A stretch of 61,327 nt of DNA from Clostridia bacterium (GCA_017558715.1 JAFYTT010000299.1:1-61327), one strand, 5' to 3'. Numbered from the stretch's first letter, positions 3,180 to 56,718 are shown. Made by a program: numbers and translations. The notes: generated by a model not told the origin, from the letters alone.

Positions 3180-3401
3180 ATGGCATACGGAAGACCCATG
3201 AAGAACAAGACCAGGCGCGTACCGGTCACGGTACACATCCCCGTCGGTATGCTTGACCTCATCGACGACTACGTCGAGAAGCACAGCGAGGAAACCGAAA
3301 CCGCATACAGCCGGTCAGACTTCTACAACGAAGCAGCGGTGGCTTTGCTTCAGAGCAAAGGCGTGGACGTCGACGAAGACGGAAGCGTAACAAAAGCGTA
3401 A
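3180..3401 (+). CDS. Ribbon-helix-helix (CopG/Arc-like) DNA-binding protein
   Basis: RBS aaaaggagga. The N-terminal RRVPVTVHIPVGMLDLIDDYVEK...SRSDFYNEAAVALL pattern fits beta strand - helix - helix. Confidence 0.55.
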   Translation: MAYGRPMKNKTRRVPVTVHIPVGMLDLIDDYVEKHSEETETAYSRSDFYNEAAVALLQSKGVDVDEDGSVTKA

Positions 3402-3594
3402 CAGAAAAATCGCAAGCCGAAACCACCAGAGACAATAGAGATAATAGAGGCACGAAATGCACCAGAAAACACGACACAAAACCTCGTGCCAACCCGCTAC
3501 GAAAGAATGGGAATAAGAACCAAAAAGCCGTAACCCCTTGAAAATAAAGGGATTACGGCTTTATTTTTTTACCCAGCGTACCAAAAGCGTAACA
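3384..3594. other. Candidate attP region with paired arm-type repeats AGCGTAACA
   Basis: AGCGTAACA at 3384 and 3395. AGCGTACCA at 3575 and AGCGTAACA at 3586. Each pair has 11-bp phasing, and the pairs flank the intergenic region immediately 3' of int. Confidence 0.35.
3521..3570. terminator. Bidirectional rho-independent terminator
   Basis: Stem agccgtaa(c)ccctt / aaggg(a)ttacggct, flanked by an A-run on the left and ttattttttt on the right. Sits between convergent genes. Confidence 0.7.
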
Positions 3595-3596
3595 CT

Positions 3597-4709
3597 TTAC
3601 TGCAGATCCTCGATTTTTCTCTCGAACTCCGAGACCACACCAGCGTAATTCTCACCCTCGGAAGTTTCCAGCCGGGAGGAGACCTCCTCCTGCTTATCCG
3701 GATACAAATGCGAATACGTCTGCAGCGTCGTCTGGATGTTTTCGTGCCCCAGGCGTTCAGACACCAGGAGCGGAGAGAAACCCATCTCGATCAGAAGCGA
3801 AGCGTGGGAGTGCCGGAGGTCGTGAACGCGGATCCGTTTCACGCCTGCAGCTTTGCTACCACTCGCCATTTCATTCGTGAGGACGTGCTTCGTGAAATAG
3901 AAGAGACGATCGCGCGGCTCATAGTCCACCAGCTGATCGGCGTAGTCGCGGATCAGAGCCAGGACGAAACGAGGAACCGAGACGACACGGTTCGAGCGCG
4001 GCGTCTTCGGAGGCTGGATAACCGTCTCCCCTTTGACCTGCGCTGCCGTTTTATTGATGGAGATGCGCGACCGCTCGAAGTCCACGTCCAGGAGCGTCAG
4101 AGCCAGAAGCTCCCCGGACCGCATACCAGTCCAGAACAGCAACTCGAAAGCCAGCCTCGCGGCTGGTTTTTTTACGCACTCAATGAACCGGCGGAATTCA
4201 TCCCGCGTCCAGAACTGCATCTCATCCGCCGTCTTTTTCCCGAAGGGACCACACACCACGACCGGATTTGACGGCAACCCATAGAACCGGACGGCATAAT
4301 TCATCACCGCCGACATTTGATTATTGACGGTCTTCAGATACGTGGGAGAATACCCCGCAGGATCCGCGAGGAGATCGTTCTGCCAGCGGCGAATCATCGT
4401 GGGCGTGATTTCGTTCACCGGCACCGACCGGAACGTCGGTAGAATTTTAGAATCGAAGAGCCAGCGCTTATTCTCATACGTCGTCGGGCGAAGCCGAGTG
4501 GCGCAATCCTCCATGTAGAGCTCCACCAGGGAGCCGAAGGACATATCGGTACCGCCGCCCTTCTTCTTCAGGAATTCCCGCTCATACTCCAGAGCCTCCC
4601 GGCGCGTTTTGAATCCTTCCTTCTTTTTCTGCCGGCGCGTGCCGTCCCAATCCTTATACCGGAACGAGACGAACCACGTGCCGCGTTTTTCATTTTTATA
4701 GACCGGCAT
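3597..4709 (-). CDS. int: Tyrosine recombinase / phage integrase
   Basis: C-terminal RVHDLRHSHASLL...LGHENIQTTLQTYSHLY (R-H-R-Y catalytic signature). ATG at 4709 preceded by ggaaggagg. Confidence 0.9.
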   Translation of the reverse strand: MPVYKNEKRGTWFVSFRYKDWDGTRRQKKKEGFKTRREALEYEREFLKKKGGGTDMSFGSLVELYMEDCATRLRPTTYENKRWLFDSKILPTFRSVPVNEITPTMIRRWQNDLLADPAGYSPTYLKTVNNQMSAVMNYAVRFYGLPSNPVVVCGPFGKKTADEMQFWTRDEFRRFIECVKKPAARLAFELLFWTGMRSGELLALTLLDVDFERSRISINKTAAQVKGETVIQPPKTPRSNRVVSVPRFVLALIRDYADQLVDYEPRDRLFYFTKHVLTNEMASGSKAAGVKRIRVHDLRHSHASLLIEMGFSPLLVSERLGHENIQTTLQTYSHLYPDKQEEVSSRLETSEGENYAGVVSEFERKIEDLQ

Positions 4710-5346: not shown

Positions 5347-5754
5347 TCAGGCTTTCTTTTTGAAGTCGATGAAGTTTTTACCAGACTGAACTTCATCAAG
5401 CGTTTTGAGCATTTCGATATACTCCTCCGCTTTTTCGCGAGCTTCATCAGAAAGACCTTCCAGCATCTCGTGGACGTCAGGATCGGAAGCGATAGCTGGA
5501 GCGGCCGTGGAAGTACCAGCGGCGCCGACGCTTTCTGGAGCGTGCCCCATTACCGGAGACAACCCCAGGATATAATCAGCGGACACGTCATACAAACGAA
5601 TGAGCTCCTGGATCGTGTCCGGGTCCGGAGCCGAGGAATTAGTTTCATAGCGAGACAAAGACTTGTCGCTCAAGTTGATAAGAGCCATAACCTGCTTCTG
5701 GCTCAAGCCTTTTCTCTCGCGTGCCTTCTTCAGGCGTTCGCCGAAAGACAACAT
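5347..5754 (-). CDS. XRE-family HTH repressor (cI-like)
   Basis: MLSFGERLKKARERKGLSQKQVMALINLSDKSLSRYETN is a classic HTH_3 pattern. ATG at 5754 preceded by aaaggtggg. Divergent from the cro-like gene. Confidence 0.8.
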   Translation of the reverse strand: MLSFGERLKKARERKGLSQKQVMALINLSDKSLSRYETNSSAPDPDTIQELIRLYDVSADYILGLSPVMGHAPESVGAAGTSTAAPAIASDPDVHEMLEGLSDEAREKAEEYIEMLKTLDEVQSGKNFIDFKKKA

Positions 5755-5776
5755 AGTATCCCACCTTTCAAGAGTA

Positions 5777-5805
5777 ATTATAGCACGCTTCCCGATTTTT
5801 GAGAA
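5777..5805 (-). promoter_or_regulatory. Candidate repressor-maintenance promoter (TTCTCA - 17 - TATAAT on the minus strand)
   Basis: Reverse complement shows TATAAT (5777-5782) and a weak -35 (5800-5805), about 22 nt upstream of the repressor ATG. Confidence 0.4.
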
Positions 5806-5811
5806 TATATT

Positions 5812-5827
5812 TCTCGGAATTTGCGAA
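5812..5827. promoter_or_regulatory. Degenerate operator (tctcggaatttgcgaa)
   Basis: The left arm TCTCG is conserved and the right arm is imperfect. Lies between the divergent promoters. Confidence 0.3.
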
Positions 5828-5834
5828 AAAGGTA

Positions 5835-5863
5835 TTGACATCTCGGAAAACGAGTGTTATAAT
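5835..5863 (+). promoter_or_regulatory. Early rightward promoter, perfect consensus TTGACA - 17 - TATAAT
   Basis: -35 at 5835-5840 and -10 at 5858-5863. Drives the cro-like gene. Confidence 0.75.
5841..5855. promoter_or_regulatory. Operator TCTCGGAAAACGAGt (inside the promoter spacer)
   Basis: Inverted repeat CTCG-N5-CGAG. One of at least 5 near-identical copies. Confidence 0.5.
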
Positions 5864-6694: not shown

Positions 6695-6876
6695 AGAAAC
6701 CAGAAGAAGACAAAAAATACCTTCGAGTGACCGAGGTCGCCTCCCTCCTCGAAGTGAGCGAGAGCCGCGCCTACAAGATTATGCGCCAGCTCAACAAGGA
6801 GCTCGAAAAACAAGGCAAGATAGTAACAGCCGGAAGAATTTCAAAGCGGTACCTCATGGAGAGGCTCTACTGCTGA
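6691..6876 (+). CDS. Excisionase-family/MerR-like HTH DNA-binding protein (61 aa)
   Basis: KYLRVTEVASLLEVSESRAYKIMRQL is typical of small excisionase-type HTH proteins. RBS gaaggagg. Confidence 0.5.
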   Translation: MKKPEEDKKYLRVTEVASLLEVSESRAYKIMRQLNKELEKQGKIVTAGRISKRYLMERLYC

Positions 6877-6889
6877 AAGGAGAAACGAT

Positions 6890-7510
6890 ATGAAAAGAAA
6901 GATAACCTCCCTGATTATGGGAATAGCAATAGGAATCATCCTCACGGCGCTGATTATGAGCGCAGGAGGAACCGCAGCATCGAACAAAGCAGACCTTCAG
7001 ACCCCGGACGTCGACCTGGTGCTGGCGCCGCAGGACGGCAACGCAGGAACCGGCGACTACGAGATCACCCACCTGGTCTACAAAACCGAAACCGAGCAGC
7101 CATTCTTCACACCGAACGAAGCCGACGTCGAAATGCTCGCCAAGACGATCTGGGGCGAGGCTCGCGGAGTGGAATCCATCACAGAGAAGGCGGCGGTCGC
7201 CTGGTGCATACTTAACCGAGTGGACGCCAAAGGATACGCCTGCGGCGGCGACATCGAATACGTCCTGACCTTCCCCGGACAATTCGTAGGATACGACGAA
7301 GACAACCCGGTAACAACCGAATGCAAGAAAATAGCGGCAGACGTCCTGGCAAGATGGGCAGCCGAAAAGGCAGGCATCGAAGATGTGGGCAGAGTGCTGC
7401 CAAAAGAATACACCTACTTCACCGGCGACGGCGAGCGGAACTATTTCACAGACGAATGGAAGGGCGGCAACACCTGGGACTGGAGCCTTCCTTCACCATA
7501 CGAAAAATGA
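6890..7510 (+). CDS. SleB-like cell wall hydrolase with N-terminal membrane anchor
   Basis: N-terminal TM (ITSLIMGIAIGIILTALIM). LAKTIWGEARGVES...AVAWCILNRV...PGQFVGY matches the Hydrolase_2/SleB signature. Confidence 0.7.
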   Translation: MKRKITSLIMGIAIGIILTALIMSAGGTAASNKADLQTPDVDLVLAPQDGNAGTGDYEITHLVYKTETEQPFFTPNEADVEMLAKTIWGEARGVESITEKAAVAWCILNRVDAKGYACGGDIEYVLTFPGQFVGYDEDNPVTTECKKIAADVLARWAAEKAGIEDVGRVLPKEYTYFTGDGERNYFTDEWKGGNTWDWSLPSPYEK

Positions 7511-11305: not shown

Positions 11306-12006
11306 TGGAGATAACGGTCATCGCGTCCGGCAGCACCGGCAACGCCTATCGAATCAGCGATGGGCAGACCGCCGTCCTGCTGGACGCGGGAATCCCGCTC
11401 AAGGTTATTCAGAGAGCGCTCAACTTCCGGGTGCGTGACCTTTCAGGCTGCCTGATTACACACGCCCACGGAGACCACGTAAAAGCCGCAGGAGACCTCG
11501 CAAAGGCAGGGGTAAACATTTACACCAGTCAGGGCACGATCGGCGCCTGCAGGCTTTCAGGGCACCGGATAAAGGCGGTCAGAGCGCTCGAAGAATTCCA
11601 GGTCGGCACGTTCGCGGTGCTACCATTCGACGTACAGCACGACGCACCGGACCCCCTGGGATTTCTGATAACCTCAAGAACAACCGGCGAAAAGCTCCTA
11701 TACTTCACCGACACCTACTACATCAAGTACCGCTTCGAAGGACTGACCCACATCATGGGCGAGTGCAACTACTCAATGGACATCATCGAGCAGAGCGTCC
11801 GGAACGGATACATACCACCGGAACTCGTACCCAGACTGGTCAAGAGCCACATGAGCCTGGAGCATTTCACCGACCTACTAAAAGCAAACGACCTACGACA
11901 CGTCAAGCAAATATACCTGCTGCATTTGAGCAACAACAACAGCGACGCCGACCGCTTCAAAGAGGCGGTGCAGAAGCTGACCGGAACGGAGGTATATGTA
12001 TGCTGA
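11305..12006 (+). CDS. Metallo-beta-lactamase fold hydrolase (probable recombination nuclease)
   Basis: ITHAHGDH zinc-binding motif. TGATG overlap with recT. Confidence 0.8.
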   Translation: MEITVIASGSTGNAYRISDGQTAVLLDAGIPLKVIQRALNFRVRDLSGCLITHAHGDHVKAAGDLAKAGVNIYTSQGTIGACRLSGHRIKAVRALEEFQVGTFAVLPFDVQHDAPDPLGFLITSRTTGEKLLYFTDTYYIKYRFEGLTHIMGECNYSMDIIEQSVRNGYIPPELVPRLVKSHMSLEHFTDLLKANDLRHVKQIYLLHLSNNNSDADRFKEAVQKLTGTEVYVC

Positions 12007-48044: not shown

Positions 48045-51000
48045 ATGGCAACAACCAAGATAACCGAAAAACAGAGTACGGAAAACGTCAGAAATAGCGC
48101 CAGCGTACTCATCACCCAGCCGGAAACGATCGGCGGCAAAACGAAGGAAAGCCTTCGCAGAGCCACGCTCGCCGCATTCATCCAGGCATTAAAAGACGCC
48201 GGAATTCACGAAGGAATGCAGACCGAAGCAGGCATCGAGGAAATGTACTCGAACCTGGTCAAGAGCGTAGACCCGATCGACACCGGAATCAGAATCACAT
48301 TCTGGGACGACACGTCTGCAGACATCGCCATCGAGAGTGGCGGTCTTGCATTTGACAGCGTGACGTACAACCAGGAGACCGGATACCTTCACATCCAGAT
48401 GGAAGGCGAGGACGTCGTGGATCCTTGCTTCATCGGAGGCGGCGGAGGCGGCGGAAGCTCCTCCGGCACCGTCGTAAAGCTGGAGAACCTCACCGGCGCA
48501 TCGGCAATCACCGTCGCGCATGGCGAAGACGTGAATATCGCCTTCAGCTTTTACGACTACGACAGCGGCGGCGAATTCACAAACAGCAGCGGTACGCTTG
48601 AGCTCTCTATTAACGGCTCAACCGTTATCCAGAAGAACATCGAGCAGGGCAACCACACCATCAACGTGGGACCGTACCTCGTAGAAGGAACCAACAAAGT
48701 GAAGGTAAAGGTAACAGACGAAGACGACAACTACGGCACGAAGACATGGACGATCAGCGCCATCGCGCTATCCGTAAGCGCCAGCTTTGACGACACGGCT
48801 ATCTACACCGGGGACGTCCTCTTCAGATACACCCCGATCGGCAACAACATCGAGAAGCTGATCCACTTCGAGATTGACGGCACGGAGGTAGCGACAGCTA
48901 CCGTCACCGCCTCCAACAGACAGCAGACGCAGAGCATCCCCAGACAGATCCACGGCGCCCACAGGCTGAAGGTTTACGCCACAGCCACGGTGGACGGCGT
49001 CGACGTAACCAGCAACACGCTGGAATACGACGTGATCTGGGCAGAGGAAGGAAACTCCACTCCTATCATCGCCTGCAGCTACGTCGGAGGAGCGAAGCAA
49101 TACACGACAATCTCAATCCCTTACATCGTCTACAACCCGGCAAGCCTGACGGCTTCCATCGTCCTTGCGGTGGACGGCGTGGAAGTTTCCAACCTTACCG
49201 TCGACAGAACGAGACAGACGTGGAGCTACAAGCCAGACACAGCCGGCACGAAGGCGCTCACCATCACTTGCGGCACCGTTGTCAAAACGATAACCCTCGA
49301 AGTCGAGGACATCGGAATCAACGTGGAACCGGTGACAACCGGTCTCGTTTTTGACCTTAACCCCGCAGGACACACAAACAACGACACCGACCGCGAAGAA
49401 TTCGGATATAAAGACGGCGCCGGCACAAACCACCCGCTGACCTTCTCCGACAACTTCGACTGGTCGAACGGCGGCTTCAAGACAGACGCCGACGGAAACA
49501 CGTACTTCTGTGTGAAGTGCGGCACTTACGTGGAAGCCGACAAGTCCTTATTCGCAGACGATGCGATGAGAACCGGCAAGGAGCTGAAATTCATATTCAA
49601 GGCAACCAACTGCCGAAATTATGACGCCCAGATCCTCTCCTGCATGGCGGACAACATCGGCGTACAGCTTCAGGCGCAGAGAGCGACAGTCAGATCGCAG
49701 CTGACCTCGATGGAGGTACCATACTGCGAAGACAGCATCATCGAGATGGACATCAACATCGAGCCTGACGGCGGCGACCGCGTAATGATGATCTGGCTCG
49801 AAGGCATTCCGTCGAAGGTGGCTATTTACGCCGACAACGACAACTTCACGCAGGACAATCCGCAGCTGCTCCGAATCGGATCCAATGACTGCGACGTCCA
49901 CATTTACCGCGTGAAGGCTTACGAGAACGACCTGACACGCCTCGAAATCCACGAAAACTGGATGGCAGACGCGCCCGACGCCGAGGAAATGCTGGAGCGC
50001 TACAACCGCAACAACATCTACGACTCCAACGGCGACATCGACATCCAGAAGCTCATTGACGCAAGTCCGAACCTCCGCGTGATTACGGTACACGCACCGA
50101 AGATGACCACGGCAAAGACGGACGAAGTCACCTGCACGGTCGATCACGTCATGAAAGCCGGCGGCGTAAAGCACAAATTCACCGGCGCCAACGTTACGAT
50201 GAAGGCTCAAGGTACTTCCTCCGCACAGTACGGAGAAGCCGCGCTGAACCTCGACCTCGAATTTGAGGCAATCGAGGACGACGCAGGCGAGGTAACCACG
50301 GCAGCCTTCGTTTTCGGAGACGGAACCACCGGAGACAAATACTCCATGACCGACAAGAGCATCGGCGTGAATTACTTCAACATCAAGCTGAACGTTGCTT
50401 CTTCGGAAAACGCGAACAACGTCGTCATCGCAGACGAATACAACGAATTCCAGCCGTACATCAACCCGGCAAGAGCGGCGAATCCCAAGGTCAGAGACAC
50501 CGTCGAGGGACACCCCTGCGTCGTATTTTTCCACAACACCGGAACCGAGGCGACCAAGATGGGATCCATTACGGTACCGGCAGGCGCAACCGTTCTCTAC
50601 GGATGCGGCGATATGAACAACTCGAAGAAAAACCTCGCCGTATTCGGACAGCAGGACAACGCGCTGCAGTCATGCGTTGAAATCAACAACAACACAAATA
50701 ATGGCTGCTTATGGAAGAGCGACGACTTGACGAATGAGACCTGGGACGACGAGGGATCGTTCCAATTCCGCTACCCGAAAAAGCCGTCTGCAGACCACAA
50801 GGCAGCATTCCAGAGAGTCCTCTCCTGGGTAGTTTCCACCGACAGAACTGCAGCGACCGGCGCGGCACTTCCGGAGAGCAAGACGTACAACGGAAAAACC
50901 TACACGCACGACACGGCAGAATACCGTGGCGCGAAATTCGTGGCAGAATTCGAGGACTACTTCATCAAGAGCTCCGCGCTTTACCATTACTTATTCACAG

Positions 51001-54000
51001 AGCGCCACGCGATGGTTGATAACCGCGCGAAGAACGTCTTCGTCTCCACCGACGACGGTATCCATTGGGACTTCACAAAGGACTACGATAACGATACCGC
51101 CGACGGTAACGACAACGAGGGCGGCTTGACGCTTTCCTACGGTATGGAAGACACCGACACCATCGGCACAAAGGACGTCTTCAACGCGTCCAGCAGCGTG
51201 CTCTGGTGCAACGTCCGCGACTTCTTCTACGACGACCTCCGCGCACTCTTCCTGACGCTCGAATCAAAGGGCGCATGGAACGCAGAGCGAATTCTCGCAA
51301 AATTCGCAGCGCACCAGTCGCCAAGACCGGAAGCGCTGGTCATTGAGGATATGTGGAAGAAATACATCCGCCCGTACACCAACAGCGGAACCGAAGCATA
51401 CCTCGAAATGCTCTACGGCACCAAAGCAGACCAGAGGCGCCAGTTTGAGATTTACCAGGAGAAATACATCGCCTCCAAATACAGAGGCTCAAAGGCGACC
51501 TCCGACACGATCACATTCCGCGCATACACCCCGACCAACTGGGGCGGCGTAGCACCGAGCGACCTGATAACAATCACGCCATACGCCGATATGTACATCA
51601 CGCTGCAGTCCGGCTCCGGAATCGTAAGCGTGAGAGCGAAGCGCGGACAATCCTACGAATTGAAGTGCCCGATCGACACCCTGAACGACACCGAAATCTA
51701 CATCTACACGGCTTCGATGGTTTCAGACGTCGGCGACCTGGCGCCCCTTTACATCGGCTACTTCAACATCGCAAGCGCCGTAAAACTTCGCCACCTGAAG
51801 ATAGGCGACGGCGCCGTGGGATACAGCAACACCAACGCCACGACCATCGGTCTGGGCAATAACGTGCTCCTGGAGACTCTCGACATTCAGAACCTGCCAA
51901 ACCTGGCACAAACACTCGACCTCACCGGCTGCGACGCCCTTCTCACTTTGAAGGCGAACGGATCCGGAATCACCGGCGTATCGTTTGCGCCCGGAGGAAA
52001 AATCCAGACAGCGCAGGTGCCAGCAATCAGCAGCATCTCCGCAATCGCTCTGAAGAACCTGCAGAGCCTCACATTCGCATCCTACGACGCGCTCCGCACA
52101 GCGAGAATCGAGGACTGCCCGACCATCAACACCCTCGACTTCATCGAGAGAGCCACCGGACTGACCAGAATCCGTATCCTCGGAATCAACTGGACGCTTC
52201 CTGACACAACGATCCTCGACCGCCTCGTGGCGATTAAGGGTCTGGACGAAGCAGACCACAACCTGGAGCAGTCGGTATTGACCGGCGCCGTTTACGTGCC
52301 GATTATGAGGCAGTCGAAGCTCACGGCGTACCGAAACGCATGGTCAGACCTTGCGATCAGCTACGAAACCCTCGTACAGCAGTACCTGGTAACATTCCTC
52401 AACTGGGACGGCACGGTACTCCACAGCGAATACGTCGACCGAGGAAACGACGTCGCCGACCCGGTAGCAGCAGGAACCATCCAGACGCCGACACGCGAGA
52501 GCAGCATCTCAACCGTTTACACATACGACGGATGGGACAGCGACCTGACAGCGATTATTGCACCGAGAACCATCACCGCGACGTACAACGAGACGCCTCG
52601 ACAGTACACCGTGCGCTGGATCTCCCAGGTCGGAATCGTTATGGACACCCAGGTCGTAGATTACGGCTCTGAAGCCACCTACGCAGGCGAGACGCCCGAA
52701 AGAACCGACGAAGAGGGACAATTCGTGTATTACCTCTTCGAGGGATGGGATAAGAGCACCGGCTTCATCACCGGAGACCTCGACGTCTGGGCAGTATGGC
52801 AGCGCGGCGAACTTCCGAACGCAGGAACGGACATCGGCAGAATGACACCGGCGCAGATTTACGCCGTATCAAAAAGCGGCAAGAGCCTCGACTACTTCTC
52901 GTTGAAGGACAGAGTGCCGGTAACCCTCGGCTTCACACCGGAGTATAGCAACATCCCATTCACGGATGTAGCGACCGAGCTGAAGCTCGACGGCAGAACC
53001 TACGTCGACACCGGGATCCAGCTCTTGAAAAACGGCATCGGCGACGCCTGGACGGTAGTCGCAGACGTAACCTTCAGCGACACGACCGCAGACCAGACGA
53101 TGATCTGCTGTATGCAGGAAGACGGATACATGGGCTTCAAGCTCAAGTATTCGGGCGGACCTTCCGTACAATGGAGCACCAACACCTACAACAGCGGCGC
53201 AACCACATACCGAGAGATTATGGTCATCAGACACGAAGCCGGCAGCAGAAACGTCAAGGTTTACTCCTCGAAGGCGTACACCAACGCTCCGGAATTCAAA
53301 GAGCTGACAAAGACCATCGACACCCAGAGCAACTGCACACTTGTGCTCGGCGCAACCAAGACCGACTCCGGCTACATCGGAGACTACGCAAAGGGTACAA
53401 TTCACTCCTGCCGCATCTGGCACGGAGATCTCGGCGACACGGACTGCCGCAACATTGTAACCTGGCCGCGTGAGACCTACCTCTTCGAGGTGGGCGGCTT
53501 CGGAAATTACAAGCTGGCAGCCAACAGCGTACAGCCGACCAGCGTGGACTTCATCTGCGCAAGCCTCCTGGAGCGCACCATGCAGATGAACACGGTCAAC
53601 AAGAACACCGGCGGCTTTGACGATATGCCACTCTTCGCATGGATGCAGAATCGCCTTTATAAGGCATTCCCCGAAGTATGGCGCCAGATGATGAAGCAAT
53701 GCAAAATCAGCTACAACTGCTACGTCGACGGCACCAACCACGAAATCGAATCCGCGAACGCATACCTCTGGGTACCGTCATACGCGGAGGTTCAGAGCAC
53801 CACAGCAGAGCCGTGGATTTACGAAGGCAACTGGGTGACGTTCTTCACGAACAACACAACCAGAATCAAATTCAGAGGCGTGGCGCTTCCGGACGGATAC
53901 TCGATATTCACATCCGGAACCGACCCGACAACCAACGCGGCGAACAACGTCAAGGAAGGCGACCTCTGGATCAACACTTCAGAATCCAGCAAAGGCTACA

Positions 54001-54164
54001 TCCGACACAACGGCGCATGGTTTGGTGCGTACTACTTCTGGCTTCGCGGCGCGGCAGTCGCGAACGCGCCGACCTTCGGCTTTGTGAACTACACCGGCTA
54101 CGCGTACTACGGCGGCTACCACGCGACGTCCAGCCTTGGCGTCTGCCCTCGCTTCTCAATCTAA
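48045..54164 (+). CDS. Giant multidomain tail fibre / receptor-binding protein; DGR target (VR at the C-terminus)
   Basis: 2039 aa. CotH-like segment (VDNRAKNVF...HWDFTKDYDNDTADG, tentative), LRR region, two Listeria-Bacteroides/InlB-B type repeats (YLVTFLNWDG..., YTVRWISQVG...GWD), a LamG-like region and a C-type-lectin-like end carrying the VR. Confidence 0.85.
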   Translation: MATTKITEKQSTENVRNSASVLITQPETIGGKTKESLRRATLAAFIQALKDAGIHEGMQTEAGIEEMYSNLVKSVDPIDTGIRITFWDDTSADIAIESGGLAFDSVTYNQETGYLHIQMEGEDVVDPCFIGGGGGGGSSSGTVVKLENLTGASAITVAHGEDVNIAFSFYDYDSGGEFTNSSGTLELSINGSTVIQKNIEQGNHTINVGPYLVEGTNKVKVKVTDEDDNYGTKTWTISAIALSVSASFDDTAIYTGDVLFRYTPIGNNIEKLIHFEIDGTEVATATVTASNRQQTQSIPRQIHGAHRLKVYATATVDGVDVTSNTLEYDVIWAEEGNSTPIIACSYVGGAKQYTTISIPYIVYNPASLTASIVLAVDGVEVSNLTVDRTRQTWSYKPDTAGTKALTITCGTVVKTITLEVEDIGINVEPVTTGLVFDLNPAGHTNNDTDREEFGYKDGAGTNHPLTFSDNFDWSNGGFKTDADGNTYFCVKCGTYVEADKSLFADDAMRTGKELKFIFKATNCRNYDAQILSCMADNIGVQLQAQRATVRSQLTSMEVPYCEDSIIEMDINIEPDGGDRVMMIWLEGIPSKVAIYADNDNFTQDNPQLLRIGSNDCDVHIYRVKAYENDLTRLEIHENWMADAPDAEEMLERYNRNNIYDSNGDIDIQKLIDASPNLRVITVHAPKMTTAKTDEVTCTVDHVMKAGGVKHKFTGANVTMKAQGTSSAQYGEAALNLDLEFEAIEDDAGEVTTAAFVFGDGTTGDKYSMTDKSIGVNYFNIKLNVASSENANNVVIADEYNEFQPYINPARAANPKVRDTVEGHPCVVFFHNTGTEATKMGSITVPAGATVLYGCGDMNNSKKNLAVFGQQDNALQSCVEINNNTNNGCLWKSDDLTNETWDDEGSFQFRYPKKPSADHKAAFQRVLSWVVSTDRTAATGAALPESKTYNGKTYTHDTAEYRGAKFVAEFEDYFIKSSALYHYLFTERHAMVDNRAKNVFVSTDDGIHWDFTKDYDNDTADGNDNEGGLTLSYGMEDTDTIGTKDVFNASSSVLWCNVRDFFYDDLRALFLTLESKGAWNAERILAKFAAHQSPRPEALVIEDMWKKYIRPYTNSGTEAYLEMLYGTKADQRRQFEIYQEKYIASKYRGSKATSDTITFRAYTPTNWGGVAPSDLITITPYADMYITLQSGSGIVSVRAKRGQSYELKCPIDTLNDTEIYIYTASMVSDVGDLAPLYIGYFNIASAVKLRHLKIGDGAVGYSNTNATTIGLGNNVLLETLDIQNLPNLAQTLDLTGCDALLTLKANGSGITGVSFAPGGKIQTAQVPAISSISAIALKNLQSLTFASYDALRTARIEDCPTINTLDFIERATGLTRIRILGINWTLPDTTILDRLVAIKGLDEADHNLEQSVLTGAVYVPIMRQSKLTAYRNAWSDLAISYETLVQQYLVTFLNWDGTVLHSEYVDRGNDVADPVAAGTIQTPTRESSISTVYTYDGWDSDLTAIIAPRTITATYNETPRQYTVRWISQVGIVMDTQVVDYGSEATYAGETPERTDEEGQFVYYLFEGWDKSTGFITGDLDVWAVWQRGELPNAGTDIGRMTPAQIYAVSKSGKSLDYFSLKDRVPVTLGFTPEYSNIPFTDVATELKLDGRTYVDTGIQLLKNGIGDAWTVVADVTFSDTTADQTMICCMQEDGYMGFKLKYSGGPSVQWSTNTYNSGATTYREIMVIRHEAGSRNVKVYSSKAYTNAPEFKELTKTIDTQSNCTLVLGATKTDSGYIGDYAKGTIHSCRIWHGDLGDTDCRNIVTWPRETYLFEVGGFGNYKLAANSVQPTSVDFICASLLERTMQMNTVNKNTGGFDDMPLFAWMQNRLYKAFPEVWRQMMKQCKISYNCYVDGTNHEIESANAYLWVPSYAEVQSTTAEPWIYEGNWVTFFTNNTTRIKFRGVALPDGYSIFTSGTDPTTNAANNVKEGDLWINTSESSKGYIRHNGAWFGAYYFWLRGAAVANAPTFGFVNYTGYAYYGGYHATSSLGVCPRFSI
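54017..54151 (+). repeat. DGR variable region (VR)
   Basis: Aligns without gaps to TR 55060-55194. 20 mismatches, all at positions that are A in the TR. The 3' 14 nt ggcgtctgccctcg are identical (IMH-like). Confidence 0.9.
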
Positions 54165-54186: not shown

Positions 54187-54215
54187 TATCTGCCCCGCAT
54201 AAGTCGGGGCAGATA
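54187..54215 (+). other. Perfect 11-bp stem / 7-nt loop hairpin 36 nt downstream of the VR (DGR target-recognition hairpin and/or terminator)
   Basis: tatctgccccg-cataagt-cggggcagata. Confidence 0.7.
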
Positions 54216-54236
54216 ACCAGGAAGAAAGGAGAAACC

Positions 54237-55031
54237 ATGTCGGTACTACGGAGCAAAAGAAAGACCGCATTCAGCGAATTTGAAAGGCAAATGGGGATCA
54301 TAGTCCGGCACACCAGCGACCGGCTCAACTCCGTGCCGATGCGGTATCGAAAATTCATGTACCCGAAAATTTACGACCCGACGAACCGAGCATACACCGA
54401 CGTCATTCTCGCCAACGAGCAGAACGTCAAGACGCCGGAGGGAGCACGGCAAAGAAGCGCACTCTTCACCGATGCGCTTCGCGCCATACTCTCGCTTCAG
54501 AAACCCCTTCTATCGCTTTGGAACATCCTCGACATTGGCGAAGACAGCGCAAAGCAATGGGCGGATATGCTCAACCGGGAAATCGCCTTAATTTTCGGAG
54601 CAACAAAAAGAGAGGAGGTGCAGCCGATGATCGTAGCGCTGCCCAAACGCAAAATGCAGAGGCTCGCGTTCCTTCAGAAGATGGCGGAGCTTCACAAATA
54701 CACCTACGAGAAAATCGGACACGCACCGAATCATTGTAAGGACTTCTTGAGCGGAAGGATAGCTGATCACATCGACACCGCCCTCTGCTCGGTCGTCCTT
54801 GCGAACCACAAAATACCGGAGACCAGGGCGGAAGCAGAAAAGCGCGAGCGCTACATTCAGGCGGCAATAGATAGCCTCAACGCTATGCAGAGACCGCTCC
54901 TGGCTCTTTGGAACATCATGGACTACAGCGAAAAGACGATGGACGACTGGGCAGGTCTCCTCGACGAAGAGCTGAAACTTCTGGAGGGAATGAAGAAGGC
55001 GGATCGCGCCCGATACCAAGACCTTCGGTAG
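54237..55031 (+). CDS. avd: Accessory variability determinant, internally duplicated (tandem Avd-Avd, 264 aa)
   Basis: Position between VR and TR. The two halves align (KRK..., VILANEQN/VVLANHKI, LQKPLLSLWNILD/MQRPLLALWNIMD, KQWADMLNREIALI/DDWAGLLDEELKLL). Basic helical protein. Confidence 0.65.
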   Translation: MSVLRSKRKTAFSEFERQMGIIVRHTSDRLNSVPMRYRKFMYPKIYDPTNRAYTDVILANEQNVKTPEGARQRSALFTDALRAILSLQKPLLSLWNILDIGEDSAKQWADMLNREIALIFGATKREEVQPMIVALPKRKMQRLAFLQKMAELHKYTYEKIGHAPNHCKDFLSGRIADHIDTALCSVVLANHKIPETRAEAEKRERYIQAAIDSLNAMQRPLLALWNIMDYSEKTMDDWAGLLDEELKLLEGMKKADRARYQDLR

Positions 55032-55059: not shown

Positions 55060-55194
55060 ATGGTTTGGTGCGAACAACTTCTGGCTTCGCGGCGCGGCAG
55101 TCACGAACGCGACGAACTTCGGCAATGTGAACAACAACGGCAACGCGAACAACAACGGCAACAACGCGACGAACAGCAATGGCGTCTGCCCTCG
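55060..55194 (+). repeat. DGR template region (TR)
   Basis: Contains 14 AAC and 2 AAT codons in the VR reading frame. Located between avd and RT. Confidence 0.9.
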
Positions 55195-55500
55195 ATTTTC
55201 ATAATTACAGTAACCAGGTATGAGGGTGAAATAATCAAAATTATGAGAAGGAGAACGCAACCCTCCGGGAGAAACACCCGGTAAATTCAAGGTCGCCCTG
55301 CTTCAAGGGCGGCACACCACGTCGGTGTCCCAGGTGCGGTCGGGAGGACGCTTCTTGCATGGCAGGAGGACAACCGTCTCCTCTTGTTTCATTCCCGGTA
55401 CCGCTTACCCGGCAGAACGGCGGAGAACCAAAATCCGGAGGCAACTCCGGACGGCGGGGACTATACCAGCCGGGACGGGCGGAGGCGAAACTTCATCACT
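55195..55500 (+). ncRNA. DGR RNA spacer between TR and RT (structured, GC-rich)
   Basis: Several perfect local hairpins (cgccct-gcttca-agggcg, cacc-acgtc-ggtg, ccggag-gcaa-ctccgg). No convincing RBS or ATG. Confidence 0.45.
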
Positions 55501-56718
55501 ATGACCAATCAAGAAAGAATTCAAGCAAGAATCGCTCGTGATAAGGCAAGGAAAGCCGAGAAGCGCAAAGCGCAGATCGAGCAGCACGGAACCTTCACGA
55601 ACGTAATCACCATGCAGGCGCTTCTCCGCTCGCTTCAGAGGCGCCGGAAAGATGTGGAGTGGAAAGGCAGCGTTCAGAGCTACATCGCCCACGCACCAGT
55701 CAAAATGAAAAGAGCCAAAGACAGCCTATGGGCAGGACGGCTCGACGTCAACCGCAAAATCAAACAGATGACGATCTGCGAACGCGGCAAGAAGCGAAAC
55801 ATCCACGCCATAATGATCGACAGCCGAGTAATCCAGGGCGCATTGTGCGACAGCTCGATAACCCCGCTCACCCAGCCGTCCCTCATTTATGACAACCCAG
55901 CGAGCACCAAAGGAAAAGGCGTCAGCCACGCCCGGCGCCGAATTGTGCGACACATCGAAGACCAGGTAAGGCAAAGCAGGAGCGACTTCTACGCTCTTGT
56001 TTACGACTTCTCCGGCTTCTTCGATAGCATAAGCCACAGCCTCTGCAGGAGGAAACTGGCAGAAGCCGGTCAGGATGAACAACTCCAGGCGCTGACGATG
56101 TACTTCATCAAAATGTACCAGGAGCAGGACATCTCATTGATAACCGACAAAAGCGAAAAAGAAAGGCTTATGGAAGAACTGCGAGCCGACAGAGCCTGCG
56201 GGGCAACCCTCGGCAGTCAGATCTCGCAGGACATGGCGCTGGTGGTGCCAAACGAACTCGACCACGCCATCAAGGACAAAGCGGGCATACGGCACTACAT
56301 CCGCTACATGGACGACGGCAATATCCTCCATGCCGACAAGGACTACCTACGAAGGCTTCTGAAAAGCATCAAAAGGCTATGCGCCAAGCTCGGACTAAAA
56401 CTGAACGAAAAGAAGACCCGCATCGTCAAGGCGACGCGAGGCTTCACATTCCTGAAGGTTCGATATACCGTGACCGAGACCGGCAGAATCATCAAAAAGA
56501 TGGCGAAGTCGGGCATCGTCCGGATGCGGCGCAAACTGAAGAAATTCCGCAAGCTGGTGGATGCCGGTCTGATGACCCGCGACGATGCCTTCAATTCCTT
56601 CAAGTCGTGGTTCGGAAACGCCAAGACCATCGCGCACAGCTACCGCACCAGGAAGGCAATGCTCATCCTTTACAACCGCTTATTTAACCGATACAGAACA
56701 GGAGGTCTGATAGCATGA
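55501..56718 (+). CDS. DGR reverse transcriptase
   Basis: IRYMDDGNIL (motif 5, YMDD), ATLGSQISQ (the DGR-type xxxSQ motif 4) and FYALVYDFSGFFDSI (motif 3). First in-frame ATG at 55501. The track TTG start 55384 lies in the spacer. Confidence 0.9.
   Translation: MTNQERIQARIARDKARKAEKRKAQIEQHGTFTNVITMQALLRSLQRRRKDVEWKGSVQSYIAHAPVKMKRAKDSLWAGRLDVNRKIKQMTICERGKKRNIHAIMIDSRVIQGALCDSSITPLTQPSLIYDNPASTKGKGVSHARRRIVRHIEDQVRQSRSDFYALVYDFSGFFDSISHSLCRRKLAEAGQDEQLQALTMYFIKMYQEQDISLITDKSEKERLMEELRADRACGATLGSQISQDMALVVPNELDHAIKDKAGIRHYIRYMDDGNILHADKDYLRRLLKSIKRLCAKLGLKLNEKKTRIVKATRGFTFLKVRYTVTETGRIIKKMAKSGIVRMRRKLKKFRKLVDAGLMTRDDAFNSFKSWFGNAKTIAHSYRTRKAMLILYNRLFNRYRTGGLIA

Follow-up and report, generated by a model that had tools for sequence, protein, structure and literature searches.

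Avd is essential for reverse transcription in diversity-generating retroelements (DGRs), which are targeted-mutation systems, and its role is only partly understood. In the single complex solved so far, a symmetric homopentamer engages an asymmetric reverse transcriptase (RT)-RNA partner, so that mutating Avd alters every one of its roles at once. In the Bordetella system, Avd is a homopentamer in which the N-terminal extension of the RT (bRT) contacts two of the five protomers and all five touch the Sp stem-loop, bases of which insert between them, and fusion of the Avd C terminus to another pentamer-forming domain is tolerated (bioRxiv 10.1101/2023.10.23.563531). The Avd of Bordetella phage BPP-1 (4DWL) is a basic four-helix bundle of 128 amino acids (aa), with one bundle per chain and C5 symmetry; its gene lies between the variable repeat (VR) and the template repeat (TR) and adjoins the DGR RT. 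The BPP-1 DGR also has a structured spacer RNA 3' of the TR and adenine-specific TR/VR differences. The survey of Wu et al. 2018 (PMC5758913) characterizes avd genes as "of similar length" without mention of a double-length Avd, gives an average Avd pI of about 9.5, and includes 1 DGR of 372 with two separate avd genes.

The window analyzed here, a 61,327-nucleotide stretch from a Clostridia bacterium (JAFYTT010000299.1), contains a DGR that shares with BPP-1 a basic, four-helix-bundle accessory protein encoded between VR and TR next to the RT, a structured spacer RNA 3' of the TR, and adenine-specific TR/VR differences; its accessory protein, here called Avd2, departs from the Avd size norm of ~110 to 130 aa and one bundle per chain: it is 264 aa long with two predicted bundles. 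Avd2 has a sequence identity of ~9% to BPP-1 Avd and, unlike it, no match to Pfam PF05635. Like the two-avd DGR of Wu et al. 2018, the cassette has two Avd units, but here they are fused rather than encoded by separate genes. No tandem, duplicated, or fused Avd was found described in the full-text literature, the main survey, or recent DGR papers, which does not prove absence, and Avd2 is apparently a conserved, widespread, so far unannotated and undescribed tandem Avd of gut Clostridia phage DGRs. It implies no new mechanism but would break the homopentamer paradigm. The explanation that we favor, with a probability of roughly 85%, is that Avd2 is a tandem Avd that arose through a single duplication, that its halves have specialized, and that it would serve RT and RNA, by analogy to Bordetella, in an altered assembly.

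The DGR cassette

The cassette is laid out in the order target gene with VR, hairpin, Avd2, TR, RT-2 spacer RNA, and RT, with the following features, all on the plus strand:

48045 to 54164, +, DGR target gene, 2039 aa, phage tail-fiber/receptor-binding type, with a C-terminal DUF6273 variable domain
54017 to 54158, +, VR at the 3' end of the target gene, a 142-nt repeat
54187 to 54215, +, hairpin 3' of the VR, an inverted repeat with an 11-bp stem (TATCTGCCCCG/CGGGGCAGATA) and the loop CATAAGT
54237 to 55031, +, tandem Avd (Avd-Avd fusion, Avd2) open reading frame (ORF), 264 aa, stop codon included
54237 to 54632, +, predicted N-terminal Avd-like four-helix bundle, residues 1 to 132 (AlphaFold2, Foldseek, pI, motifs)
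54606 to 54644, +, interdomain linker, residues ~124 to 136, KREEVQPMIVALP, coil in the AlphaFold2 model
54633 to 55028, +, predicted C-terminal Avd-like four-helix bundle, residues 133 to 264 (phrog_3206, AlphaFold2, conservation, dN/dS, motifs)
55060 to 55201, +, TR 3' of Avd2, with 40 adenines
55196 to 55479, +, spacer RNA between TR and RT, Rfam RF03077 "RT-2 RNA"
55501 to 56718, +, DGR RT, 405 aa, Met at 55501 (phrog_1423, E = 2.5e-59; RVT_1, E = 2e-19)

The last 439 aa of the target gene product match Pfam DUF6273 (E = 4e-7), a domain found at the equivalent position in the target homolog of a related locus (L001). Over their 142 nt, TR and VR are 85% identical, and 21 of the 22 mismatches fall at TR adenines. 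The RT, whose homologs are also called at 405 aa, contains LGSQISQ at residue 237 and YMDD at residue 269, the former conforming to the [ILV]GxxxSQ motif that is a hallmark of DGR RTs. The hairpin between the VR and the Avd start recurs at the equivalent position in 36 of the 38 distinct loci, as a GC-rich stem of 9 to 11 bp with a conserved 7-nt loop (CGTAAGT, CGTGAGT, or CATAAGT), and the stems show compensatory changes between lineages (CTGCCCCG/CGGGGCAG, CTGGGCGG/CCGCCCAG, and CTGGTCGG/CCGACCAG). This element is probably a DGR target-site hairpin, of the kind reported for the Bordetella phage (Guo et al. 2011).

The RT-2 RNA, which spans from the 3' end of the TR to shortly before the RT start, is a full-length match to its model (67.2 bits against a gathering score of 40; E = 1e-14). 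Judged by its position, it would be the equivalent of Sp in the Bordetella phage DGR RNA. The same RNA was found in related loci:

L052, 2502 to 2719
L006, 6961 to 7236
L025, 6958 to 7223
L023, 1138 to 1403
L013, 6963 to 7234
L001, 8961 to 9272
L019, 7110 to 7246

The first of these, L052, is a cassette with a single-domain Avd, and its RT-2 RNA scores 111 bits. The RNA was considered as a cis-acting element specific to tandem cassettes and was rejected as such, being common to single-Avd and tandem-Avd cassettes; it therefore leaves the duplication unexplained.

An internally duplicated open reading frame

The Avd2 ORF is uninterrupted, begins with ATG, and has no internal stops, and an AAGGAG ribosome-binding site lies at 54226 to 54231, 5 nt upstream of the start. 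It is the sole ORF between VR and TR and the sole Avd-like ORF in the whole window, in agreement with an earlier note on this DNA, made from the sequence alone, which described a single double-size ORF at this place and proposed that its halves are homologous. Residues 1 to 132 and 133 to 264 are 30% identical over 103 aa by BLASTP (E = 6e-18) and align with hardly any gaps. Their Smith-Waterman score is 171, compared with 26.8 ± 4.6 in 1,000 shuffles (z = 31), and HHalign comparison of the family alignments of the N-half and the C-half gave a probability of 99.6% (E = 7.4e-24) over 118 aligned columns. The blocks quoted in the earlier note (KRKTAF/KRKMQR, DVILANEQN/SVVLANHKI, LQKPLLSLWNILD/MQRPLLALWNIMD, and KQWADMLNREIALI/DDWAGLLDEELKLL) all align as it had claimed. 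The internal duplication is genuine and far above chance.

Profile and structural evidence for Avd-type bundles

Among PHROGs, the C-half matches phrog_3206, "Avd protein of DGR," at E = 4.7e-7 over profile positions 10 to 132 of 154. A direct PHROGs match for the N-half was not found, and this half is tied to phrog_3206 through its homology to the C-half. Single-domain relatives match the same profile, over their full length at E values of 1e-12 to 1e-6 and overall at 2.5e-12 to 1e-3. The earlier note had looked to the Avd/PF05635 family for each half; in this it was borne out through PHROGs for the C-half and for neither half through Pfam, where PF05635 was not matched at E ≤ 10 by whole Avd2 or by either half, nor by ten Avd2 relatives that included single-domain ones. 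NCBIfam likewise gave no match for Avd2 or either half, and no solved Avd structure was reached in sequence searches of the PDB with the single sequence, the family profile, or a profile of the stacked halves. Since neither half matches PF05635, the assignment to Avd relies on PHROGs together with fold and genomic context.

The AlphaFold2 model of whole Avd2, built from a 59-sequence family alignment (pLDDT 91, pTM 0.87), consists of two four-helix units with a coil of ~13 residues between them; the helices of the N-half span residues 14 to 30, 35 to 61, 67 to 97, and 102 to 123. The best Foldseek matches of this model in the PDB were 2GSC (TM-target 0.86 to 0.89) and 2RLD (~0.8), both with a probability of 1.0, and Bordetella phage Avd 4DWL was matched with a probability of 0.87 and a TM-target of 0.72. 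Each of the PDB matches spans ~115 columns, the equivalent of one half. Modeled alone, the N-half (pLDDT 88) again matched 2RLD and 2GSC best, with a probability of 1.0 and a TM-target of up to 0.84. In BFVD, the good matches were single-domain "Avd-like protein" entries of 113 to 134 aa (TM-target ~0.8), and no match spanned both halves. The Foldseek E values are weak (0.1 to 3) despite the high probabilities and TM scores, and the four-helix bundle is a common fold, so that the fold alone is unspecific for Avd. The two best structural matches, 2GSC (Xcc0516) and 2RLD (BT_0352), belong to PF05635/"S23 ribosomal protein" (23S rRNA intervening-sequence protein); unlike Avd2, they are single-domain proteins of ~110 to 120 aa with no link to DGRs, and their relationship to Avd2 is undetectable by sequence profile.

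Avd2 is basic, as expected of an Avd, with a pI of 9.4 for the whole protein, 9.8 for the N-half, and 8.5 for the C-half, each half being 132 aa long. An Avd-type fold in both halves, a profile match for one of them, and the position of the gene where Avd is expected (in 41 of 41 testable loci) together support the earlier note's identification of both halves as Avd-type four-helix bundles, a prediction that draws on structural models.

Conservation and activity across related loci

A search of 5.8 billion proteins returned 68 clusters at 90% identity, mostly of 263 to 266 aa, which cover the full query at identities down to 43%; the exact Avd2 protein of the window occurs on 18 contigs. One cluster member from a Ruminococcus metagenome-assembled genome (MAG) is labeled "hypothetical protein" at NCBI. 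The related loci comprise eight from GTDB genomes, namely Ruminococcus, Acutalibacteraceae, Eubacteriales, and Clostridia MAGs from gut-type assemblies (goat colon, rabbit, and others), and 41 more on IMG/VR contigs. One intact ORF of ~264 aa, followed 285 to 500 nt downstream by a related RT, was present in 49 of 50 loci, which are independent (MAGs and viral contigs from many samples) and extend down to ~31% identity. The order VR-Avd2-TR was found in all 41 loci with enough upstream sequence. Searches of the INPHARED phage genomes by blastn and tblastn gave no match to the cassette or to the tandem protein.

TR/VR differences summed over 41 loci fall at TR adenines in 620 of 655 cases (95%), and near-identical phages differ in their VRs; together, these two observations indicate that the cassettes are active in nature. 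Purifying selection acts on each half, with median dN/dS values over 126 pairs of 0.11 for the N-half and 0.06 for the C-half.

The earlier note had raised the possibility of a frameshift or missed stop that hides two separate genes. The long ORF might be an assembly or sequencing artifact, or a recent accidental fusion of two ~130-aa avd genes: canonical Avds are ~110 to 130 aa and similar in length in the survey of Wu et al. (PMC5758913), the same survey includes the one DGR with two avd genes, and the junction in Avd2 carries an SD-like motif and a Met. An artifact is contradicted by the uninterrupted ORF, which was recovered from 49 of the 50 loci, from 68 clusters formed at 90% identity, and from 90 representative clusters formed at 50% identity, and by the occurrence of the exact protein on 18 contigs; since a single ORF is kept so widely, a concealed frameshift or overlooked stop is excluded. 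The history of the two halves, described below, bears on a recent fusion.

Family size and origin of the tandem

A 133-position profile of the stacked N- and C-halves, searched against 1.84 billion representatives at 50% identity, returned 457 representatives at E ≤ 1e-3. The best 151 of these included 90 with two full domains (235 to 358 aa, median 266) and 37 full-length single-domain proteins, the remainder being partial. The rarity of the tandem form implied by the earlier note thus gives way to a large family.

In a simple neighbor-joining tree of 212 domains over ~133 columns, one bipartition places all 90 N-halves on the same side, a second group contains 82 C-halves, and a third contains 24 true single-domain proteins; the few "singles" that fall among the N-halves or the C-halves are fragments. 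Because the N-halves are monophyletic and the C-halves are monophyletic, the fusion is ancient. The true singles start with MSV(L/I)KSKR, like the N-half, and end with KKD.ERYK.L, like the C-half, and the ancestral C-terminal tail has been lost from the N-half and the ancestral MSV head from the C-half. The separate monophyly of the halves and this reciprocal loss speak against a recent fusion, and the reading of Avd2 as an artifact or recent fusion is effectively refuted. The sequence comparisons instead fit one ancient head-to-tail duplication and fusion of a single-domain Avd.

The true singles match phrog_3206 and phrog_30516 and are located in an equivalent cassette, which in L052 runs target, 135-aa Avd, TR, RT-2 RNA, and RT. 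In L052, the RT shares 37% identity with that of the window, TR and VR differ at 14 positions, 13 of which are at A, and the Avd shares 28% identity with either half of Avd2. These single "MSVxKSKR" Avds of Clostridia phage DGRs, for example, those from L052 and from a Faecalibacterium phage, resemble the Avd2 system in their identical cassette order, related RT, and homologous target, and share the head with the N-half and the tail with the C-half at ~28% identity to each over full length; unlike Avd2, they have one bundle per chain, presumably the ancestral state. Among the cultured phages in INPHARED, matches come from the single-domain relative only. In Faecalibacterium phage FP_Taranis (MG711467.1, L054), a 152-aa ORF at 3501 to 3959 (AUV56872.1), deposited as "hypothetical protein," lies between the annotated DGR target and RT and is related, as a single-domain protein, to the Avd family described here; a 61-aa ORF (3309 to 3494) is found directly 5' of it.

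A natural two-gene split form was sought among the single representatives that resemble one half, and no convincing case was found. Entry P0107, considered as such a form, was rejected: it lies on a 1.6-kb contig, is followed by short overlapping ORFs, and looks like a frameshifted copy. L053 (Logan SRR28794299_99335, 436 to 1579) contains an N-half-like ORF of 149 aa followed by overlapping ORFs at 882 to 1130 and 1127 to 1579 and resembles a tandem Avd gene that has been frameshifted or has decayed, rather than a true split form; its contig is short.

Divergence of the two halves

The two halves differ in charge and in rate of change. In the close family, the pI of the N-half is 9.72 ± 0.28 (net charge +8) and that of the C-half is 7.6 ± 1.0 (net charge +0.7), and pairwise identity is 60% for the C-half versus 46% for the N-half. 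The charge asymmetry is weaker in the broad family than in the close one, the N-half being the more positive in 63 of 90 proteins. Of 46 columns conserved in true singles, 13, mostly in the hydrophobic core, are kept by both halves, 10 only by the N-half (the MSV..KR..S head and P-K/R-R at the start of helix 2), 14 only by the C-half (A-N in helix 2, P64, E69, G121, and the K.D.RY tail), and 9 by neither. Such complementary retention of ancestral columns is a signature of subfunctionalization. Charge, conservation, and motif retention thus agree with the earlier note's suggestion of specialized halves.

The same differences could be read another way, with the C-half alone working as the Avd and the N-half having been recruited as a four-helix module for a separate task, such as nonspecific nucleic acid binding, regulation, or solubility. 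The direct PHROGs match is limited to the C-half, which is also nearer to the single Avds (mean distance of 0.868 versus 0.900) and better conserved, and the N-half evolves faster, as its higher dN/dS shows. The N-half is, however, homologous to the C-half, on its own matches the PF05635-type structures 2RLD and 2GSC best, and alone retains the MSV..KR head, the P-K/R-R motif, and the Avd-like basic charge. It is also under strong purifying selection in every lineage, and the high pTM (0.87) implies that the two bundles are packed against each other in a fixed way. We regard a C-half acting alone as quite improbable and favor two specialized Avd-type halves.

A model for Avd2 function and assembly

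Under the favored explanation, a single-domain "MSVxKSKR...RYKxL" Avd was duplicated head to tail and fused once. The N-half then kept the basic head and P-K/R-R, together with nearly all of the net positive charge in the close subfamily, and the C-half the A-N motif and the C-terminal tail, with slower evolution. By analogy to the Bordetella bRT-Avd-RNA complex, Avd2, as the sole accessory protein of the DGR, would oligomerize and bind both the N-terminal extension of the RT and the structured RT-2 spacer RNA, and this binding would license adenine-mutagenic cDNA synthesis from the TR. The roles played by identical protomers of the homopentamer have in this way probably been hard-wired into two nonidentical bundles.

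A ring of five bundles is impossible from whole two-bundle chains alone, so the assembly must differ from the homopentamer; the altered stoichiometry or symmetry that the earlier note foresaw follows by logic, the usual route to the standard ring of five copies being closed to Avd2. Five chains could form two coaxial five-bundle rings, or three chains could form a pseudohexamer. The oligomeric state, and which half would contact the RT and which the RNA, are inferred. A non-C5 complex in which roles are split between the bundles, for example, the N-half for the spacer RNA and the C-half for the RT extension, is a proposal for which we see the odds as even.

A five-bundle, pentamer-like ring would be restored if the gene gave two products, the full chain and a free C-half from an internal start at Met131, in a ratio of two tandem chains to one free C-half. 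At 54609 to 54629 (+), AGAGAGGAGGTGCAGCCGATG places GGAGG ~7 nt upstream of the in-frame ATG of Met131, at the domain boundary, and an SD-like motif with ATG or GTG recurs at the linker in the close family even though the peptide varies. The SD duplex energy at the linker is stronger than the mean of synonymous resampling in 19 of 23 distinct junctions, but the same resampling shows it to be not significantly stronger than the protein sequence and codon usage would lead one to expect (per-site p = 0.1 to 0.8; combined p = 0.19). The linker Met is absent from the most divergent loci (L008, L047, and L048), and among the 90 tandem representatives a Met occupies the aligned Met131 column in 7 and lies within ±4 columns of it in 43. 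Database entry P0083, considered as a free C-half, was rejected as an artifact of a 517-bp contig. An internal start is therefore unlikely in our judgment, and the preferred reading is of whole tandem chains in an altered assembly.

The existence of diverged, individually conserved tandem halves suggests that the homopentamer is not the sole workable solution, and in the Avd2 system the RT-binding and RNA-binding surfaces should be separately mutable. If the complex is indeed non-C5 with split roles, nature would have dissected the functions of Avd in a genetically separable form, and the DGR reverse transcription machine would have a second architecture. Avd2 may also supply compact parts of defined stoichiometry for engineered DGR mutagenesis. 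For annotation, the family draws attention to many DGRs of gut Clostridia phages in which the accessory gene is "hypothetical" and has no PF05635 match.

Phage setting of the cassettes

In one related locus (L037, IMGVR_UViG_3300045988_016921), the TR (6837 to 6961) is 99% identical to its own VR (5716 to 5840). It lacks 19 adenines that are present in the TRs of the sibling loci L032 and L034, to whose Avd genes its own is 98% identical, and it keeps an IMH*-like end. Either a diversified copy overwrote the template, an event that would freeze the element, or the two repeats were merged during assembly.

A tmRNA gene (163 bits) was found at 11340 to 11691 on the minus strand of L006, a Clostridia MAG, ~4.5 kb 3' of the cassette, and a tRNA gene at 11683 to 11754 on the minus strand of L025, near the end of the viral contig; these genes may be prophage attachment sites. 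Near-identical Avd2 cluster members are carried on contigs of 60.9 to 61.7 kb, and the longest contig with the exact protein is 61,327 nt, equal in length to the window. The window thus probably represents a phage genome in complete or nearly complete form. A 92%-identical copy of Avd2 lies inside a 324-kb contig of a Ruminococcus sp. MAG (L002), a location that suggests a temperate lifestyle.
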